NCBI GenBank assembly: GCA_963775725.1
Contig: CAVZKA010000001.1
Span: forward strand, 740,309-804,308
Length of the DNA stretch: 64,000 nucleotides
Source of the DNA: an uncultured Acidobacteriota bacterium
GTDB taxonomy: Bacteria; Acidobacteriota; Thermoanaerobaculia; UBA5066; Gp7-AA6
Reading direction: 5' to 3'
The translations under genes and the position numbers were made by a program. Position 1 is the first letter of the stretch. Each line of letters starts with the position of its first letter. Shown in pieces: positions 4,897 to 61,864 of this stretch. The notes under the pieces were generated by a model. It worked only from the letters and a program-made list of their open reading frames with translations, did not search any database and had not been told where the DNA came from.

Positions 4897-6060
4897 TCAG
4901 CCCCTCTTGCGCCCCGCCAGCCGCCAGAACTGCGTCTCGTTCAGCAGCGTGATCCGGTGGCCCTTCTCGCGCAGGCGCTTGATCTCGAGCAGCTTCCTGC
5001 CCGCGTCCTTGCCGGCCGCCTGGAGCGGATTGGGCTTGCCCCGGACGACGACGGTCGTCTTCGCGGAGGGCGAGCCGTGGATCTTCGCACCGGCGCGGCG
5101 CGCGGCCCGGGCGGCTTCGATGCGGGGACGGCTGAGGATTCCGGTGAACGCGAGGTGCGCGCCCTTGAGCGTGCGCAGGCGTCCGACCTTGAGGGCCGCA
5201 GGCGGGTGGGTGAGCGCGTCGATCAGTTCCTGCGCGCTCTCGTAGCGCTTGCGGCGCTCGCCGATGCAGCGATAGACGATCTCCTTCAGGTGGTCGGTGC
5301 AGCGCAGGCCCCGCACCTCGCCCGTCCGGATCCGGGCGGCCGCGCTGCCCTTCACGAGCATTCCGAGCAGCTGCCCGACCTGGTAGACGTCGTCGCGCGC
5401 CTGCCACTTGGGGGCGAGTCCGGAGAGGATGTCGCTCGGGACGCCCCACGGGTTCAGCGTGCGCGCGGCGACGCCGCGGCGGTCGCTCTGGTGGCTGACG
5501 ATGCCGAAGTCTCCGAGCTTGAGTGAAACGCCGTCGCAGACGAAGACGTTCATCGGCGTCAGGTCCCGGTGGAGGAGCTGGCCCCGGTGGAGCTTGCCGA
5601 GCACCTCGAGAATGCCGGCGATCTCGCGCCGCGCGGTCCGCTCGGTCCAGCTCTTGCCCGTGCGATCGAGGTAGGCGCGCAGGTCGCCGTGCTTCGCGTA
5701 CTCGAGCGCGAGGCAGTAGAGGACGCTGCCGTCCTCCCGGATCAACGGAAACGCGTCGAAGACGCGGATCGCGCGGGCGTGGCCCGCGAGGAGCTGCCCG
5801 AAATAGGCTTCCTTCAACCAGCCGTCGATGTGCTCGCTCGCCTTGATCGCGACGGCCGCCGGGACCGAGAGGGAGCGCGTCACCCGCGTCGCCAGGTACG
5901 CCTGGCCGAAGCCACCTTGGCCGAGCAGGCTGTCGATCCGGTAGCGCAGGCGCGTCTCGGGACTCGCGATGACCTGCTGCGGGAGCAGCAGGGCCTTGCC
6001 CCGCGCCGCGCGGGTGGCGGCGGACATCCCGAGAGTCGTGGCTCTGGTATCTACGGTCAT
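4897..6060 (-). CDS. Ser/Thr protein kinase with a C-terminal BRCT domain
   Basis: This is the C-terminal 387 aa of track ORF 4897..7359. Kinase motifs: LGQGGFGQAYLA (G-loop), VAIKAS (Lys), HRDLTPMNVFV (catalytic loop), KLGDFG, DVYQVGQLL. The last ~90 aa (LKGAHLAFTGILSRPRIEAARAARRAGAKIHGSPSAKTTVVVRGKPN...GHRITLLNETQFWRLA) resemble a LigA-type BRCT domain. The ORF upstream of 6060 is low-complexity and antisense to a real plus-strand gene. Confidence 0.7.
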   Translation of the reverse strand: MTVDTRATTLGMSAATRAARGKALLLPQQVIASPETRLRYRIDSLLGQGGFGQAYLATRVTRSLSVPAAVAIKASEHIDGWLKEAYFGQLLAGHARAIRVFDAFPLIREDGSVLYCLALEYAKHGDLRAYLDRTGKSWTERTARREIAGILEVLGKLHRGQLLHRDLTPMNVFVCDGVSLKLGDFGIVSHQSDRRGVAARTLNPWGVPSDILSGLAPKWQARDDVYQVGQLLGMLVKGSAAARIRTGEVRGLRCTDHLKEIVYRCIGERRKRYESAQELIDALTHPPAALKVGRLRTLKGAHLAFTGILSRPRIEAARAARRAGAKIHGSPSAKTTVVVRGKPNPLQAAGKDAGRKLLEIKRLREKGHRITLLNETQFWRLAGRKRG

Positions 6061-20375: not shown

Positions 20376-20750
20376 CTAGGTCTTCGCCGCCGGCTCCTGG
20401 TAGATGCCGAGGACGTTGCCGCCCGGGTCGCGGAACCGCGCGGTGATCTCGGGCGCGTCGACGCCGATGGGCTGCACGATCTCGCCGCCGTGCGCGACGA
20501 CCTTCCGGGCGGCGTCTGCCGCGTCGTCGACCATGACGTACACGATGAGGCCGGCTTCGCGGTGGGGGGGCCGGCCGGTCACGAAGGCGCCGCTGACTTC
20601 GCCGATGGCGTCGTCGAACGCCGTCGCTCCGTCCCCGCGCTTGCGCATCTTCCAGCCAAACACCGCCGCGTAGAAAGCGGCCGAGCGCGCGACGTCGGTC
20701 GCGGGGATCTCGACGTAGCAGATCTTGCCGTCGCCGTGGGTCGGTGGCAT
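20376..20750 (-). CDS. VOC/glyoxalase-fold protein
   Basis: KICYVEIPATDVARSAAFYAAVFGWKMRKRGDGATAFDD...GGNVLGIYQ. Confidence 0.7.
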   Translation of the reverse strand: MPPTHGDGKICYVEIPATDVARSAAFYAAVFGWKMRKRGDGATAFDDAIGEVSGAFVTGRPPHREAGLIVYVMVDDAADAARKVVAHGGEIVQPIGVDAPEITARFRDPGGNVLGIYQEPAAKT

Positions 20751-20831
20751 GGGAAGGATTGTACTGGTCCCGCCGGGCGGTCACCGGGGCCCGGCGTGAT
20801 TCTCGGCGTCGCGCGCCTGCCTTCCCCGTGT

Positions 20832-21191
20832 CTACTTCTTCGGCTGCCAGAGCCCGATGACCGCTCCCGTCGGGTCTTTGAAGATGCTCAGCCAGCCGAG
20901 CTCCGCCACCGGGATGACGTCCCGCAGGATCGTCGCGCCGAGGGATTTGGCCTTCGTCGTCGCGGTCTGGATGTCGTCGACGCCGACGTACGGCATCCAC
21001 GCCGACGGCGCCCCGGGCACCATCTGCTGCATGATCCCGCCGCCCGTGGCGCCGGCGACGCCGATGGTGGTGTAGACCATGCCCTCCATCGGGACGTCTT
21101 CGAGCTTCCAGTCGAAGAGCTTGCCGTAGAAAGCCTTAGCCTTGTCGACGTCCGTGGTGGCGAGTTCCGAATGCACGAATGCGTTTGCCAT
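20832..21191 (-). CDS. VOC/glyoxalase-fold protein
   Basis: C-terminal 119 aa of track ORF 20832..21884: MANAFVHSELATTDVDKAKAFYGKLFDWKLEDVP...DPTGAVIGLWQ. The upstream part of the track ORF is Arg/Pro-rich junk. Confidence 0.7.
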   Translation of the reverse strand: MANAFVHSELATTDVDKAKAFYGKLFDWKLEDVPMEGMVYTTIGVAGATGGGIMQQMVPGAPSAWMPYVGVDDIQTATTKAKSLGATILRDVIPVAELGWLSIFKDPTGAVIGLWQPKK

Positions 21192-55426: not shown

Positions 55427-56190
55427 TCTCCCGGACCGCGAAAGCGCAGGAGCCGGTAGCCGTACGCGCCCGAGCGGTACAGCTCCCGGTAGGCCGCGCC
55501 GCTCTCGAGCAGCCCGTCGATCGCTGCGGCCTCGACGCCGAGCTCCGCCTCGATGGCTTCGCGGTGCTTCGGGATGCGCGCGAGGAAATAATCGACGGTC
55601 GGCGCCGCGGCGTCGGACAGATCGAGCACCTCCTGGAGCCGGAATCCCGCTCCCGCGGCCGCCGCGAGAAAGCGATCGAGGCGGGGAAGGCTCTGCGGCC
55701 GGTCGACGGCCGCAATCGCGAACTCGTCGAGCACGAGGACCGTCGCGTGCGCAGCGGCCAGGCCCCGGACCTTGCGGAAGAGCGTCTCGCTTTCGATGTA
55801 CTGCGAGGACTCCTGGAAGAGCACGATGTCGAATCGGCCCGGAGGATCGAACGCCTCGAGCGGTGTCGTGTGGACGCGGATGCGCGACCCGAACCGTTCG
55901 GCCGCGGCCGCCGCCTGGACCGCGTCCGGCGTGATGCCCTCGGCGTCGTAGCCGAGCGCTGACAGGCGCGCGAGCGTGGTCCCGAGGCCGACCCCCACTT
56001 CCAGCAGGTGCGCGGGCGCGGGAGGCAGGCGGGACAGGAGCAGCGCGGTGGAGCGCTCCTGGGCCGCGGCGATCGAGTCGCCGGGCGCCTCGAAGAAGCC
56101 GTAGTGCATGCTCTCCGCGCGTCCCTCTTCCCGCGTCAGGACGTTCAGGAGCACGTTCAGGGGAAAGGGGAAGTCGCGGTACCGCAACAC
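55414..56190 (-). CDS. Class I SAM-dependent methyltransferase
   Basis: Motif I in HLLEVGVGLGTTLARLSALGYDAEGITPD, and the post-I acidic residue region IVLFQESSQYI. Overlaps the downstream membrane-protein start by ~13 nt. Confidence 0.65.
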   Translation of the reverse strand: MLRYRDFPFPLNVLLNVLTREEGRAESMHYGFFEAPGDSIAAAQERSTALLLSRLPPAPAHLLEVGVGLGTTLARLSALGYDAEGITPDAVQAAAAAERFGSRIRVHTTPLEAFDPPGRFDIVLFQESSQYIESETLFRKVRGLAAAHATVLVLDEFAIAAVDRPQSLPRLDRFLAAAAGAGFRLQEVLDLSDAAAPTVDYFLARIPKHREAIEAELGVEAAAIDGLLESGAAYRELYRSGAYGYRLLRFRGPGEIAA

Positions 56191-56239
56191 AGGCGGAGGA
56201 TCTTATCGGAAGGACCGGATAAGCTTGGCGCAGCCGCCG

Positions 56240-57190
56240 ATGATCCCTCTCTCCGACATCCGCGCCGCGGCCCTGAGGCTCGCGGGGCGCGTTCATCGCA
56301 CGCCGCTCGTGTCGTCGATCCTGCTCGGCGAGCGGGCGGGCGCGCGGCTGTTCTTGAAGTGCGAGAGCTTTCAGAAGACGGGCTCCTTCAAAGCGCGCGG
56401 CGCGCTCAACAAGGTTCTGTCGTTGCCCGACGCCGATCGCGCGCGCGGGCTCGTCACGGTCTCGGCGGGCAACCACGCGGCGGCCGTCGCGTGGGCGGCG
56501 CGCGAGGCCGGCTGTTCGGCGGTCGTCGTCATGCCCACCGACGCGCCGCGCTCCAAGATCGCCGCGGTCCGGGGCTATGGCGCGGAGATCGTGCTCCATC
56601 CCGACCGGCCGACGCTCTTCGACAAGCTGCACGAGGTGCGGGACGCCCGCGGCCTGACCTTCGTCCATCCCTTCGACGACCCGGTGCTGCTCGCCGGCGC
56701 GGGTACGGCGGGCCTCGAGATCGCCGAGGAGTTTCCGGACGTCGAGGTCGTCGTCGTGCCCGTCGGCGGAGGCGGCCTGCTCGGCGGGGTCGCCTCGGCC
56801 GTGAAGCAACTGCTTCCCGGCGCGCGCGTCGTCGCCGTCGAGCTCGCCGACGGGCCGGGCCTCGCGCCGGCACTCGCGGCCGGCAAGCCGGTCCCGGTCA
56901 CGCGGCCCGCGACGCTCGCCGACGGCATGACGCCGCCCTTCGTCGGCGCGCTGCCGCTCGCGATTGCGCTGGAAGCGGTGGACCAGATCGTGACCGTGAC
57001 CGAGGAGGAGATCCGCGAGGGGATGCGCCTGCTGATGACGCGGGCAAAGCTCTACGTCGAGGGATCCGGCGCGGCGGCCGCGGGGGCGTTGATCGCGGGA
57101 AAGATCGCGTTTGCGCCCGGAACGCGCGTCGTCGCGCTCGTGTCGGGCGGGAACGTGGACCTGGATCGAATCGCCACGCTGATCCGGTAA
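56240..57190 (+). CDS. PLP-dependent threonine/serine dehydratase family enzyme
   Basis: From MIPLSDIRAAALRLAGRVHRTPLV inside track ORF 56108..57190. PLP-Lys motif ESFQKTGSFKARGA. Gly-rich loop VVPVGGGGLLGG. ~316 aa. Confidence 0.8.
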   Translation: MIPLSDIRAAALRLAGRVHRTPLVSSILLGERAGARLFLKCESFQKTGSFKARGALNKVLSLPDADRARGLVTVSAGNHAAAVAWAAREAGCSAVVVMPTDAPRSKIAAVRGYGAEIVLHPDRPTLFDKLHEVRDARGLTFVHPFDDPVLLAGAGTAGLEIAEEFPDVEVVVVPVGGGGLLGGVASAVKQLLPGARVVAVELADGPGLAPALAAGKPVPVTRPATLADGMTPPFVGALPLAIALEAVDQIVTVTEEEIREGMRLLMTRAKLYVEGSGAAAAGALIAGKIAFAPGTRVVALVSGGNVDLDRIATLIR

Positions 57191-57223
57191 GTGGCCGCGA
57201 GCGATTGGTCCGTTCGTTCGATC

Positions 57224-57583
57224 TCAGGCCGTCCGCGCCGCCGCGGCCCGGTGCTTCTGCGTCGCATACCCGACGATCGCTCCGACGAGCGCGCCCGGCA
57301 GCATGATCTCGAAGTAGTAGTGCTTCCCGTTCGGGTCGGGCATCGCCGCGACGATCCACGCGAGCAGCAGACCGACGCCGAGCCCGAACAGAACGCCGAG
57401 CGACAGCGAATTCACCTTTCGGGCGAAGAAGCCGATCGAGACGCCCGCGATCAGGCCCTTGAACGTCGAGCCGATGACGATGCCCACGAGCTGGTTGCGC
57501 ACCTCCGGCGTGAAGTAGGCCGTCAGCCCGTCGAAAATGCCCAGGACGCCCCCGAGAATCAGTCCGAACAGCGGTTTGCTCAT
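57224..57583 (-). CDS. Small membrane protein (4 TM), last gene of the sigma-kinase operon
   Basis: MSKPLFGLILGGVLGIFDGLTAYF...LVGIVIGSTFKGLIAGVSIGFFA...LGVLFGLGVGLLLAWIVAA...MLPGALVGAIVGYA. GGAGGCG lies ~10 nt upstream. Confidence 0.5.
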   Translation of the reverse strand: MSKPLFGLILGGVLGIFDGLTAYFTPEVRNQLVGIVIGSTFKGLIAGVSIGFFARKVNSLSLGVLFGLGVGLLLAWIVAAMPDPNGKHYYFEIMLPGALVGAIVGYATQKHRAAAARTA

Positions 57584-57630
57584 AGATGTGTCGCCTCCAC
57601 CCTCTCTATTCAACGCGACTCGGGAATCCT

Positions 57631-58662
57631 TTAACGCCTTCCGTACAGGAGAAGGACCGTGCGCGCGACGAGGTACGCGAGCACGATCAGGATCGGGGCC
57701 TGGTAGCGCGTGAAGAAGCGTCGTGCGCGCTCGAAGAGATCTTCGTGGTGCGCGCGCACGCGCTCGCCGTCGAGGAACCGGCCGACTTCGGCGGCGACCT
57801 CGGCGGCGCCGTCGTAGCGCGCGGCGGGATCGGCCGCCATCGCGCGCAGGACGACCGACTCGAGCGGGCGCGGGATTCCGGCGTCGATGCGCCGCGGGGG
57901 AAGGGGCGCGAGCCGGGCCTCGCCGCGCGCCCGCCGCCCGGCAGACGCGTCGTCGAAGGGCGCGCGCCCGGTCAGCAGGAAGTGGAGGATCGCCCCGAGC
58001 GCGTAGACGTCCGCGGCCGTCCCCGTGCGTTCGGCGGATCCCTCCGCCTGCTCGGGCGCCATGTAGGCGAGCGTCCCGATGACCTGCCCGTCCGCCGTCC
58101 CCGGAGCCGCCGGCGCCGACCGGGCCGCGGGCGTCCCATCCGGGTCGGTGAGGACCTTTGCCACGCCCCAGTCCATGACGAGCACCTCGCCGAAAGCGCC
58201 GATCATCACGTTCTCGGGTTTCAGGTCCCGGTGCACGACGCCGTGCGCGTGCGCGAAGGCGACGGTCTCGCAGATGCGGCGGAATGCGCGCAGCCGCTCG
58301 GGCAGCGCCATCTTCGGCGCGAGCTCGTCGAGGCGCTTGCCGTCCACGCGCTTCATCGCGTAATAGACGCGGCCGTCCGGGAGCATGCCGGCGTCGTGCA
58401 CCGGCACGATCCCCGGGTGCTCGAGCCGCGCGATGACCCGCGCCTCCGCCCGCAGGCGCTCGACGGTGTCCGGCCGCGCCGCCGCGGTCGCGACGACTTT
58501 CAGCGCCACCTTGCGGCCGAGGACCGTGTCTTCGGCGAGGTAGACCGTGGACATCCCGCCGTGCCCGAGCTCGTCGAGCGGGCGATACTTCGTCTCGCCG
58601 AGGTCCGGCCACTCGGCGACGCGCTTCAGGTGCCGGACGGTCTCGTCGGAGAGCCACCTCAT
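57631..58662 (-). CDS. Ser/Thr protein kinase with a C-terminal transmembrane anchor
   Basis: From MRWLSDETVRHLKRVAEW inside track ORF 57631..58911. Motifs LGHGGMSTVYLA, VALKVV, HRDLKPENVMI, DWGVAK (DFG variant), GTLAYMAPEQ. C-terminal TM helix APILIVLAYLVARTVLLLY. Confidence 0.75.
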   Translation of the reverse strand: MRWLSDETVRHLKRVAEWPDLGETKYRPLDELGHGGMSTVYLAEDTVLGRKVALKVVATAAARPDTVERLRAEARVIARLEHPGIVPVHDAGMLPDGRVYYAMKRVDGKRLDELAPKMALPERLRAFRRICETVAFAHAHGVVHRDLKPENVMIGAFGEVLVMDWGVAKVLTDPDGTPAARSAPAAPGTADGQVIGTLAYMAPEQAEGSAERTGTAADVYALGAILHFLLTGRAPFDDASAGRRARGEARLAPLPPRRIDAGIPRPLESVVLRAMAADPAARYDGAAEVAAEVGRFLDGERVRAHHEDLFERARRFFTRYQAPILIVLAYLVARTVLLLYGRR

Positions 58663-59408
58663 TCCGAGACTCCGAGCAGGCTCTTTGCCTCGTCCCGGAA
58701 CTCGCGGTCGCTCGTCGTGATCTCGCGCAGCTTCTCGAGGACGATGCGCCGGAACTCGCGGCGCGCGAAGGCGAGGAAGTTCGTGACCTGCGTGACGGGA
58801 ATGTGCAGCTCCTCGGCCAGGCGGTCGTACGTGAGCCGCTCCTCCGGGTCGCGGTCGAGCTCGTAGCGCTCGAAGAGCAGGAAGGGCAGGTCCTTGCCGC
58901 GCAATGCGCACTCCTCGCGCAGCGTCTCGACCGAGAGCACGAACAGGCTGCGTACGAACTCGTCGTGGAAGTACTGGTCCATCGTCCGGCCGGCGGCGGG
59001 CGCGCCGCGCGCGATCTCACTCTCGGCGACGTCGAAGTCGAGCGGGACGACCGGCGATCCCGGCGAGCGCTTCTGCCGCAGCGCGGCCTTCCTTTCGTTG
59101 GCGACGTACCGGTCGAGGCAGACGCGCAGGTAGGTGCGGAAGCTGCCTTTCTCCGGTTCGTAGGCCGCGAAGAACTCCTTCTCGAGCGCCCGCGCGAAGA
59201 AGCCCTGGGTCAGGTCCTTGGCTTCCTCGTTGCCTTCGCGGTGGCGGATCCGAAGGTACTTGTAGATGGGCTTCCAGTAGGCGGCGACCAGGATCGAGAG
59301 CCCGCGCTCGCGCTCGATGAGGTCGCCGCTCTGCGCGGCGAGGACGGCGGAATGCCGCGTCGCCGGGAACTTGCCCGAACCCTCCCCGATGCCGGTGTCG
59401 TCGACCAT
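58659..59408 (-). CDS. ECF-type sigma-70 family RNA polymerase sigma factor, extended ~250 aa form
   Basis: From MVDDTGIGEGSG (internal Met of track ORF 58659..59465). Sigma-2-like ILVAAYWKPIYKYLRIRH...AKDLTQGFFARALEK. Sigma-4-like RLTYDRLAEELHIPVTQVTNFLAFARREFRR. Its stop overlaps the kinase start (ATGA). Confidence 0.65.
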   Translation of the reverse strand: MVDDTGIGEGSGKFPATRHSAVLAAQSGDLIERERGLSILVAAYWKPIYKYLRIRHREGNEEAKDLTQGFFARALEKEFFAAYEPEKGSFRTYLRVCLDRYVANERKAALRQKRSPGSPVVPLDFDVAESEIARGAPAAGRTMDQYFHDEFVRSLFVLSVETLREECALRGKDLPFLLFERYELDRDPEERLTYDRLAEELHIPVTQVTNFLAFARREFRRIVLEKLREITTSDREFRDEAKSLLGVSE

Positions 59409-59424
59409 GGACGCGGTATATCGT

Positions 59425-59853
59425 ATGAGGGTGACGCCGGAAGCGACAGCGGTAGCCGACGCCAACCTCGCCTTTTATCGCGCCCTCGAGGCCCGCGACC
59501 TCGAGACCATGGCCAGGGTCTGGTACCACGACGAGTCCGTCAGCTGCGTTCACCCCGGCTGGCACCGCCTGGACGGGTGGGACGAGGTCGAGCGGTCCTG
59601 GGAGAACATTTTCACCAATTCGCGGCCCTGGGCAGTCTCCTGCGAGGACATCCGCATCGCGCTCGCCGGTGACCTCGCGTGGGTCACGTGCGTCGAGGTC
59701 ATCGTTCCGTTCGGTGCGGAGGAGGAGTCGGAGGCCGCGCGGATGCAGGCCACCAACCTGTTCGGACGGGTGGACGGAGAGTGGCGCCTGGTTCACCATC
59801 ACGCTTCGCCCTCGCCGACCGGAGAGGGGATCCCGGAGGAGCCGGTCAACTAA
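59425..59853 (+). CDS. NTF2-like (SnoaL/DUF4440-type) protein, divergent from the sigma factor gene
   Basis: Start at MRVTPEATAVADANLAFYRALEARDLETMARVW. An alternative ATG at 59407 would overlap the sigma ATG within CCATGG. Has the typical NTF2 topology ...DGEWRLVHHHASP. Confidence 0.55.
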   Translation: MRVTPEATAVADANLAFYRALEARDLETMARVWYHDESVSCVHPGWHRLDGWDEVERSWENIFTNSRPWAVSCEDIRIALAGDLAWVTCVEVIVPFGAEEESEAARMQATNLFGRVDGEWRLVHHHASPSPTGEGIPEEPVN

Positions 59854-59874
59854 TTTGATTCGCGGAGGGCTGGG

Positions 59875-60870
59875 ATGAGGATTCTGAAGGTCCTGGGTTG
59901 GATCGTCGCTGCGCTCGTGGTCGCCGCCGGGAGCCTCCTCGCATGGCTCGCGCTGCGCTCTCCCGACCGGCTGCCGCCTTCCACCGAGAAGGTCGCGCCG
60001 ACGCCCGAGCGCCTGGCGCGCGGCAAGTACCTGGTCCGTCACGTCGCGGACTGCCTGCCCTGCCACTCCGACGTCCTCGGGGACCGCTTCGCCATTCCCA
60101 TCAAGCCGGGCACCGAGGGCCAGGGCGGCTTTGCCTTCGACAAGAAGCTCGGCGTGCCGGGACGCGTGCAGGCGCAGAACATCACGCCGGATCCGGAGTT
60201 CGGCATCGGCTCCTGGTCGGACGGCGAGGTCATGCGGGCCGTGCGCGAGGGCGTCGACCGCAAGGGCAGGGCCCTCTTCCCGATGATGCCGTACGCCGGG
60301 TTTCACAGGTTGAGCGACGAAGACATGCGCTCGATCCTGGTCTACCTGCGGACGTTGAAGCCCATACACCACGAGGTCGCGCCGCGGCAGCTCGACTTCC
60401 CGGTCAACCTGCTCGTCAAGTTCTCCCCGAAACCGATCACCGCGCCCGTCCCGGCGCCGGATCCGAAGGACACCCTGGCCTACGGCAAGTATCTCGTCAC
60501 GATCGCGGGCTGCCGCGACTGTCACACGCCGCACGACGACAAGGGCCAGCTCGTCCCCGGGATGGACTACTCGGGAGGATGGCTGATGGTCGGCCCCTGG
60601 GGACGCGTCGTGTCGGCTAACATCACCCCCGATCCGGACAACTTCATGGGGCAGACGACCCGCGAGGCGTTCATCGGCCGGTTCAAGGCCTTCGAAGGCC
60701 TCGATGCCGGCACCTCGCCGGTCGCGTTGCCGGGCAGGAACACGGTCATGGGGTGGTCGCGCTACGCGGGCATGACCCCCGAGGACCTCGGCGCGATCTA
60801 CGACTACCTGAAGACCGTCAAGCCCATCAAGAAGAAGATCAACCCCTTCCCGGACGCGAAGACAGAGTGA
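59875..60870 (+). CDS. Membrane-anchored diheme cytochrome c
   Basis: N-terminal TM/signal MRILKVLGWIVAALVVAAGSLLAWLAL. Two heme-binding sites: CLPCHS and CRDCHT. Confidence 0.75.
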   Translation: MRILKVLGWIVAALVVAAGSLLAWLALRSPDRLPPSTEKVAPTPERLARGKYLVRHVADCLPCHSDVLGDRFAIPIKPGTEGQGGFAFDKKLGVPGRVQAQNITPDPEFGIGSWSDGEVMRAVREGVDRKGRALFPMMPYAGFHRLSDEDMRSILVYLRTLKPIHHEVAPRQLDFPVNLLVKFSPKPITAPVPAPDPKDTLAYGKYLVTIAGCRDCHTPHDDKGQLVPGMDYSGGWLMVGPWGRVVSANITPDPDNFMGQTTREAFIGRFKAFEGLDAGTSPVALPGRNTVMGWSRYAGMTPEDLGAIYDYLKTVKPIKKKINPFPDAKTE

Positions 60871-60895
60871 TGGCGACACGAGTTCAGGGCGCTCC

Positions 60896-61864
60896 ATGAA
60901 GGCCGTCCGCGTCCACGCGCCCGGCGGCCCGGAGGTCCTGTGTTACGAGGACGTGCCCGAGCCGCAGCCGAAATCGGGCGAGGCGGTCGTGCGCGTCGAG
61001 GCGGCCGGCCTCAACTTCATCGACGTCTACTACCGCACGGGGCTCTATCCGCAGGCGTTGCCGTTCACGCTCGGCCGGGAGGGCTCGGGCACGGTGCTCT
61101 CTGTCGGCGCGGGCGTGAAGGACCTCGCCCCGGGCGACCGGGTCGCCTGGGCGGCCGTCCTCGGCGCCTACGCCGAGCAGGCGGCGGCGCCCGCGGAGAG
61201 CCTCGTGAAGCTGCCCGACGGCGTCGACACGAAGCAGGGCGCCGCGGCGATGCTGCAGGGCATGACCGCGCACTACCTGGCGCGCGCGGTCTACCCGCTG
61301 AAGCCCGGCGACACCTGCCTCGTGCATGCGGCCGCCGGCGGCGTGGGGCTCCTGCTGACCCAGATCGCGAAGATCTGCGGGGCGCGCGTGATCGGGACCG
61401 TCTCGACCGAGGAGAAGGCGAAGCTCGCGCGCGCGGCGGGAGCGGACGAGACGATCGACTACACGCGGCAGGACTTCGTCGCGGAAGTGCGGCGGATCTC
61501 GGACGGCGCGGGAGTCCAGGTCGTCTACGATTCGGTCGGCAGGACGACGTTCGAGAAGGGATTCGAGTGCCTCGCCCCGCGCGGCATGATGGCGCTCTTC
61601 GGCCAGTCGAGCGGGCCCGTCGCCCCCTTCGACCCCCAGGTCCTGTCGCAGCGCGGCTCCCTCTTCCTGACGCGGCCCACCCTCTTCCACTACATCGCGA
61701 CCCGCGCGGAGCTCGTCGCGCGCGCCGGCGAGGTGCTGTCCTGGATCCGGGACGGGCGGCTCAAGTTGCGGATCGGCCGGGAGTTCCCGCTCGCGGAAGC
61801 CGCCGACGCCCACCGCGCCCTCGAGGGCCGCCGGACGACCGGCAAGGTCCTGCTCATCCCCTGA
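60896..61864 (+). CDS. qor: NADPH:quinone oxidoreductase (MDR superfamily, Qor-like)
   Basis: MKAVRVHAPGGPEVLCYEDVPEPQP... with cofactor motif VHAAAGGVGLLLTQIAK. ~322 aa. Confidence 0.8.
   Translation: MKAVRVHAPGGPEVLCYEDVPEPQPKSGEAVVRVEAAGLNFIDVYYRTGLYPQALPFTLGREGSGTVLSVGAGVKDLAPGDRVAWAAVLGAYAEQAAAPAESLVKLPDGVDTKQGAAAMLQGMTAHYLARAVYPLKPGDTCLVHAAAGGVGLLLTQIAKICGARVIGTVSTEEKAKLARAAGADETIDYTRQDFVAEVRRISDGAGVQVVYDSVGRTTFEKGFECLAPRGMMALFGQSSGPVAPFDPQVLSQRGSLFLTRPTLFHYIATRAELVARAGEVLSWIRDGRLKLRIGREFPLAEAADAHRALEGRRTTGKVLLIP

Follow-up and report, generated by a model that had tools for sequence, protein, structure and literature searches.

A 64,000-nt stretch of DNA from an uncultured Acidobacteriota bacterium (contig CAVZKA010000001.1, positions 740,309 to 804,308; called the window below, with positions counted from its first letter) carries on its minus strand three adjacent genes, which encode an extracytoplasmic function (ECF)-type sigma factor, a membrane-anchored Ser/Thr kinase and a small membrane protein that we call tm4. 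These genes constitute a conserved three-gene module: the same gene order is seen in nearly all of 83 related loci, so the arrangement is far beyond chance. The small membrane protein, which had been taken for a passenger, belongs to the module and is its best conserved member (mean pairwise identity 0.62, as compared to 0.52 for the sigma and 0.54 for the kinase). ECF43 sigma factors controlled by kinases were known already; what is new here is a conserved three-part module with tm4 as a central component, and our literature searches found no published description of this trio. We lean slightly towards the view that the sigma, the kinase and tm4 form one transmembrane signalling module, in which the kinase, under the control of tm4, switches the sigma by phosphorylation. 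The genes and their junctions in the window are:

58659..59408, minus strand: ECF-like sigma factor gene (249 aa; start ATG at 59406-59408, stop at 58659)
57631..58662, minus strand: Hanks-type Ser/Thr kinase gene (343 aa, tail-anchored)
57224..57583, minus strand: tm4 gene (119 aa, small four-helix, glycine-rich membrane protein of an uncharacterised family)
58659..58662, minus strand: ATGA shared by the sigma stop (TGA) and the kinase start (ATG), read directly from the sequence
57584..57630, minus strand: kinase-tm4 spacer of 47 nt, with a Shine-Dalgarno sequence GGAGG at 57594-57598, 10 nt before the tm4 ATG

The ATGA overlap reported in the preliminary description is present, and a 4-nt overlap of the same kind is also found in close relatives; the sigma and kinase genes are probably co-transcribed and translationally coupled. 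The distance between the kinase and tm4 genes had been given as 48 nt and measures 47 nt. The observation that an anti-sigma gene is lacking nearby holds for the scanned neighbours, among which Pfam detected no anti-sigma domain (two stretches there have no family assigned, one of them possibly out of frame).

Conservation of the trio in related genomes, suggested earlier as a check, was assessed by a genome scan with a narrower sigma alignment, which gave 80 loci (83 were compared when loci reached via close homologues were included); counts below use the loci with enough flanking sequence, i.e. 78 for the kinase and 72 for tm4. In 75 of the 78 loci the next gene downstream of the sigma encodes a kinase homologue, and 63 of the 72 have a tm4 homologue further downstream, after the kinase (in one more it is divergent and upstream). 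Many classes of Acidobacteriota are represented among the scanned loci, together with Myxococcota (Myxococcus dinghuensis and two Sorangium), Planctomycetota (Phycisphaerae) and Gemmatimonadota, and a few loci are from bins labelled otherwise. The sigma family is large and widespread among soil phyla that are difficult to study, with 9845 representatives of 50% clusters at E-values up to 1e-3 and 270 at E-values up to 1e-30 (nearly all of 235-255 aa). Pairwise identities of the sigma and the kinase co-vary (r 0.75). Two Sorangium loci (L030:5001-7519 and L046:5001-7516) have the sigma followed by two tandem kinase-like stretches; their best-matching kinase is 519-532 aa long and has no C-terminal anchor, and tm4 was not found nearby, a joint loss in keeping with a connection of tm4 to the anchor. 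Finally, one protein of 1530 aa (P0170) has a sigma of this family (residues 3-227) joined to Pkinase, AAA_16 and TPR domains.

A fourth gene recurs at some of these loci. Directly after tm4, and on its strand, 29 distinct loci of the 83 (30 when the duplicate pair L001/L002 is counted twice; e.g. L001:10198-10566) carry a 122-aa glyoxalase/bleomycin-resistance-like (VOC) gene; they span several acidobacterial classes, and the matches in L058 (a Phycisphaera bin) and L077 are weak. The window does not have it at the position after tm4 and holds paralogues only (20397-21176). The VOC gene may be a target gene, and may hint at a response to toxic compounds. A conserved downstream glycosyltransferase-like gene was also considered and was discarded as an artefact of clustering overlapping open reading frames; the real recurrent fourth gene is the VOC-like one.

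The label ECF-like sigma was well chosen, as profile and fold matches are exclusively to ECF sigma factors, and by sequence and predicted structure the window protein is a divergent ECF-type sigma. It scores below the curated cut-offs of the general models (Sigma70_r2, E 1e-3, 19.3 bits versus 24; TIGR02937, E 5.6e-8, 32.6 bits versus 42.9) and phmmer found nothing in PDB at E-values up to 10, which is why we term it divergent and 'ECF-like'. A profile of 54 relatives, 43 of which match Sigma70_r2, retrieves Mycobacterium tuberculosis SigE and SigH and Pseudomonas aeruginosa AlgU from PDB, with both sigma-2 and sigma-4.2 aligned. The AlphaFold2 (AF2) model is all-helical (pLDDT 90, pTM 0.82), and the best Foldseek matches of this model are exclusively ECF sigmas.

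The sigma consists of a low-confidence N-terminal extension of ~25 aa, sigma-2, a linker with an acidic helix, sigma-4 with small insertions, and a C-terminal extension of ~25 aa that forms a single helix. Its unusual length, pointed out before, is real (249 aa; the close homologues, which come from metagenome-assembled genomes of Thermoanaerobaculia (Acidobacteriota), all have 249-250 aa), but the extra residues are mainly the ~25 aa at each terminus and not an extended region separating sigma-2 from sigma-4. Two segments matter for what follows:

59349..59369, minus strand: N-terminal motif FPATRHS (residues 14-20), with T17 and S20 as candidate phospho-acceptors
59196..59225, minus strand: region 2.2, EAKDLTQGFF (residues 62-71), with the acidic D/E-A-x-D kept

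Three features separate this family from canonical ECF sigmas in the alignments: the N-terminal FPxTRxS motif, a KRGGG turn, and the C-terminal helix LREITxSxxEFRxEAxxLLG. P15 and T17 show no variation in the alignment of 54 sequences; of 138 family sequences, 137 have T17 and 97% have S or T at position 20. FPxTRxS sits in the disordered, low-confidence N-terminal tail of the AF2 model and was not found in the alignments to RpoE and SigE. Region 2.2 aligns with DVPDVVQEAF of RpoE and DAEDLTQETF of M. tuberculosis SigE, and its acidity is retained in the same 138 sequences (D or E in 87% at position 62 and in 100% at position 65). In the linker, the acidic helix LDFxxAExEL is near-invariant (D124 in 96%, E129 in 93% and E131 in 87% of the 138). 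T67 of the DLTQ segment was considered as a phospho-acceptor and was down-weighted; it is conserved, but the canonical M. tuberculosis SigE has an identical DLTQ, so T67 is not specific to this family.

The kinase gives strong matches to Pkinase (E 1.5e-36) and to the PknB kinase domain (E 1e-45). Judged by its motifs, it is a Hanks-type Ser/Thr kinase with all catalytic motifs present, as read from the sequence: the loop GHGGMS, VALK, HRDLKPEN, DWG (a variant of DFG) and APE. The C-terminal transmembrane helix noted earlier is borne out by the hydrophobic tail:

57640..57705, minus strand: predicted transmembrane anchor of the kinase, about residues 320-341, with hydrophobic tail APILIVLAYLVARTVLLLYGRR

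The protein ends 3-4 residues past this anchor, so it has a single C-terminal helix and no domain on the outside, and no TPR match was found in the window kinase. Its relatives from four phyla share the same layout, namely the kinase domain, a FLDGxPVxAYRE segment and an anchor of the form LVLAYLxMR...R-stop, with nothing beyond the membrane; a Tyr and an Arg are conserved within the anchor. A second kinase-like stretch is found elsewhere in the window (5341-5946, minus strand), where 219 aa align with the module kinase at 26% identity (E 3e-5).

The third protein, tm4, belongs to no Pfam, NCBIfam or PADLOC family. It has 3961 homologues, again without a Pfam domain, whose automatic names are 'hypothetical' or mutually inconsistent. 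The AF2 model, made from a shallower alignment, has four helices (pLDDT 73). Conserved residues include D18, K42 and E92, which lie in helices, and P96. Judged by its positively charged loops (K3, R55-K56 and the K/R at the C-terminus), tm4 would have both termini inside; D18 and E92 would then be close to the outer leaflet, as would the Arg of the kinase anchor. Two likenesses of tm4 were examined and rejected as non-significant: one to Tim17-type proteins (Pfam Tim17, E 0.22) and one to chain Y of mammalian complex I, a four-helix subunit that was weakly matched by Foldseek in PDB (TM ~0.52, E 0.45).

Taken together, the module is a compact case, which pairs a receptor kinase without a receptor domain with an unannotated and highly conserved membrane protein. 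We propose that tm4 would act as the membrane-embedded input, reporting a cue from the membrane or envelope to the kinase. Since the kinase itself lacks a sensor domain, it would be controlled within the membrane by tm4, possibly with the conserved Arg of its anchor facing D18 and E92 of tm4 on the outer-leaflet side. The kinase would then phosphorylate the sigma directly. If the kinase does control the sigma, the mechanism must differ from that of ECF43, since the residues whose absence explains ECF43 are kept here; with region 2.2 and the linker already acidic, the switch would not be a restoration of charge. The phosphate would most likely be placed on the N-terminal FPxTRxS motif (T17/S20) and may open or close an auto-inhibited, compact sigma, with the conserved C-terminal helix also involved; the pTM of the model, high for a two-domain sigma modelled alone, is consistent with such a compact form. 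The operon promoter would give a sigma mRNA with no leader or a very short one, and control would then be post-translational.

These proposals do not all have the same standing. The general claim of a kinase-controlled sigma module with tm4 as a partner draws on synteny, co-variation, the fusion protein and the ECF43 precedent, and is the part that we slightly favour. We can only guess at the phosphorylated residue, at whether the switch activates or inhibits, and at the contact with tm4. The full version, i.e. a distinct system found in several phyla, in which tm4 senses a cue and controls a sensor-less kinase by helix-helix contacts and phosphorylation of FPxTRxS switches a core-competent sigma, is accordingly a tentative proposal that we would not yet bet on. 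Cultured members of Myxococcus and Sorangium carry the sigma family, which makes the idea directly testable.

Several observations speak against this signalling module. The identities of tm4 co-vary weakly with those of the sigma and the kinase (r 0.40). Three loci (L014, L018 and L026) have a sigma with all the family motifs and neither kinase nor tm4 within 5 kb; these sigmas may be orphan paralogues or may have partners that are encoded at other sites. Three others (L009, L042 and L048) have an anchored kinase and no tm4 nearby. The 1530-aa protein could be a natural sigma-kinase fusion or a frameshift artefact. T67 is conserved as well, and T17/S20 as the acceptor site is a guess. A consensus scan of 57100-59900 found no full sigma-70 promoter in the window (and no convincing terminator).

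Among other explanations, the one that we rate second, and still consider unlikely, is that the kinase mainly does the work of an anti-sigma, tethering a competent sigma to the membrane or inhibiting it, with tm4 triggering the release and phosphorylation being inhibitory or secondary. This would suit a sigma that keeps all canonical core-binding residues and that, without an anti-sigma, would otherwise be constitutively active. The juxtamembrane FLDGxPVxAYRE segment of the kinase is conserved, and the gene layout recalls sigM-yhdL-yhdK of Bacillus subtilis. A pure tether, however, has no need of the catalytic motifs, all of which are conserved, and the kinase has no recognisable anti-sigma domain and only ~25 residues between the kinase domain and the anchor.

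We consider it improbable that the window sigma is a plain member of ECF43, which would behave like EcfP and not bind core RNA polymerase until region 2.2 (or the linker, as for EcfK) has received a phosphate. The preliminary description had pointed to this group and had called the experimental data on kinase-associated ECF sigmas sparse. The latter statement is dated: direct phosphorylation of a sigma by the kinase encoded next to it has been shown for EcfP/PknT (2020) and EcfK/PknS (2018, 2026) (PMC13147305, PMC8999054), so that this type of sigma control is recently established, and it is worked out for two ECF43 proteins in the literature that we examined. The criteria for ECF43 were taken from the EcfK paper, two reviews (including PMC8999054) and the classification supplement, and our comparison was based on published motifs, PF07638 and the alignments to RpoE and SigE. 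Hallmarks of ECF43 are a match to PF07638 instead of separate matches to sigma-2 and sigma-4, and a kinase at position +1 with one transmembrane helix and periplasmic TPRs (PMC8999054). In region 2.2, the acidic DAED of other sigmas is replaced by the uncharged STTA or QTTA (also QATE), and phosphorylation of the Thr restores the charge for binding to beta-prime; EcfK adds a site in the linker. The predicted target promoter of the group is GTC (-35) ... CAG (-10).

The association of a kinase with an ECF-type sigma, as first described, stands, and the window shares with ECF43 the gene order, the +1 kinase with one transmembrane helix and the lack of an anti-sigma gene among the scanned neighbours. 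The window sigma itself does not match PF07638 at E-values up to 10, but 27/54 of its relatives match it weakly, and one Sorangium member (L030) is just over the cut-off at 26 bits. The assignment to ECF43 is not supported, since the mechanistic positions differ: instead of Q/S-T-T-A (or QATE) the family has E/D-A-x-D (EAKD in the window), with the acidity at the two outer positions given above, and where ECF43 has its phospho-threonine the 138 sequences have K, E or Q. The linker, phosphorylated in EcfK, is already acidic here, and the kinase has no TPR ectodomain.

Mere co-expression, with the operon driven by the sigma and the kinase and tm4 directed at other substrates, has a similarly low probability in our view. 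Hanks kinases often have many substrates (PMC13147305), and some copies of the sigma have no adjacent kinase. Against these stand the adjacency in 75/78 loci over four phyla, the ATGA overlap and the co-variation of sigma and kinase, together with the sigma-kinase fusion and the experimental precedent for neighbouring pairs. A function in anti-phage defence, of the PD-T4-6 type and with incidental neighbours, is very improbable for the kinase, as the strong PADLOC match (E 1.9e-73) covers only the generic kinase domain, a region that PknB (E 1e-45) and other housekeeping kinases match as well, the sigma, tm4 and the neighbouring SnoaL gene have no PADLOC matches, and the synteny is chromosomal and stable in many phyla, unlike that of a defence island.

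Upstream of the sigma, a divergent gene and a short AT-rich interval are found:

59405-59410, both strands: CCATGG, containing the ATG of the sigma (minus strand) and an ATG in frame with the SnoaL_3 open reading frame (plus strand)
59425..59853, plus strand: divergent SnoaL_3/NTF2-like gene (SnoaL_3, E 4.4e-29), with a likely start at 59425 rather than 59407
59409..59424, no strand: gap of 16 nt between the sigma ATG and the SnoaL ATG, which holds most of a conserved AT-rich block
59416-59427, minus strand: AT-rich block CATACGATATAC, -10-like
59420-59425, minus strand: TACGAT, ending 11 nt before the sigma ATG
59415-59420, minus strand: TATACC, ending 6 nt before the sigma ATG

The sigma ATG at 59408 is supported by the length of the homologues (249-250 aa) and by their starts, as the start codon is aligned with Met1 of the window sigma in most of the 80 loci. 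The CCATGG palindrome had been described as a double start. The palindrome and both in-frame ATGs are there, but the SnoaL gene probably starts at 59425 and the double use would be a local coincidence: at the equivalent position one close relative (L004) has an in-frame stop and three (L003, L006 and L007) have no Met, and gene calls in relatives give the SnoaL product 140-142 aa. Throughout the close clade (L001-L007) the SnoaL and sigma start codons are ~15-22 nt apart. The SnoaL gene adjoins the sigma only in these seven closest loci, and we therefore treat it as a neighbour and not as a module member. SnoaL-like domains are known as fused regulatory extensions in other ECF groups, e.g. ECF41 and ECF294.

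The suggestion of a leaderless sigma transcript is plausible. No Shine-Dalgarno sequence precedes the sigma in the window, where the kinase and tm4 each have one, nor in 60/62 relatives; the counts of genes with a Shine-Dalgarno sequence are 2/62 for the sigma, 31/79 for the kinase and 51/54 for tm4. A TAnnnT hexamer ending 5-18 nt before the start is found for 21/62 sigma genes (10.4 expected), and for 1/79 kinase and 2/54 tm4 genes. The rarity of Shine-Dalgarno sequences before the sigma and the excess of TAnnnT make a leaderless or very short-leader sigma mRNA plausible, as comparative support and not as proof. TTGnCA-N17-TAnACT is found upstream of the sigma in 10/79 loci (2.1 expected), mostly of Terriglobia and not in the window; the housekeeping-type TTGTCA-N17-TAGACT in some Terriglobia hints at constitutive transcription rather than autoregulation. 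Also in Terriglobia, a long conserved block surrounds the -10-like element (GTCGTACACTCCC or CTGCATAGACTCC) upstream of the sigma, often with TTGTCA at a spacing of 17 nt (L034, L035, L048, L052, L067, L068, L053, L064, L072, L074 and L083). This block exceeds the length needed for a plain -10 hexamer.

Other neighbours identified in the window by the Pfam scan include PALP, a methyltransferase, cytochrome c, ADH_zinc (quinone oxidoreductase), NmrA and FG-GAP. The convergent PALP gene lies 33 nt from the end of tm4. An Rfam scan of 56000-61000 gave no match.

Several known systems resemble the module in part. In the sigM-yhdL-yhdK operon of B. subtilis, an ECF sigma is encoded with a single-pass membrane regulator and its partner, a small multi-pass membrane protein. 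The likeness to the trio is in the layout; YhdL is an anti-sigma factor rather than a kinase. ECF41, ECF42 and similar groups also have a conserved extension past sigma-4, and the compact conformation predicted for the window sigma suggests that intramolecular control may be shared. The extension here differs from theirs in being a single helix of ~25 aa with no SnoaL or TPR domain, and a kinase is present in addition.

A kinase is also encoded beside the sigma, usually with no anti-sigma, in ECF59, ECF61, ECF62 and ECF217 (Planctomycetes), ECF283 (Actinobacteria) and ECF267 (Sorangium/Chondromyces). Some of these groups keep a DAED-like motif (PMC8999054). The published descriptions set these six groups apart from the window family: each is described from a single phylum, their kinases have WD40 repeats, TPRs or at least 5 transmembrane helices, and no small four-helix membrane partner like that of the trio is described.

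The closest precedent is provided by the ECF43 pairs EcfP-PknT (Vibrio parahaemolyticus) and EcfK-PknS (Xanthomonas citri), in which a sigma gene is likewise followed by the gene for a single-pass Hanks kinase, with no anti-sigma factor. ECF43 kinases are large and carry periplasmic TPRs (PknS has 833 aa), whereas the window kinase has 343 aa and no ectodomain; the published description of ECF43 includes no conserved third gene, whereas the trio has tm4; and ECF43 as re-classified is proteobacterial, whereas the window sigma family is mainly acidobacterial. With the acidic D/E-A-x-D kept, no PF07638 match for the window sigma, no TPR ectodomain and an acidobacterial host, the family is, as judged by these sequence hallmarks, not ECF43 but a neighbour of the PF07638/ECF43 lineage that does not have the defining mechanistic feature of ECF43. 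If the proposed mechanism is true, the module would represent a second and mechanistically different form of control of sigma factors by Ser/Thr phosphorylation, beside the charge restoration of ECF43.

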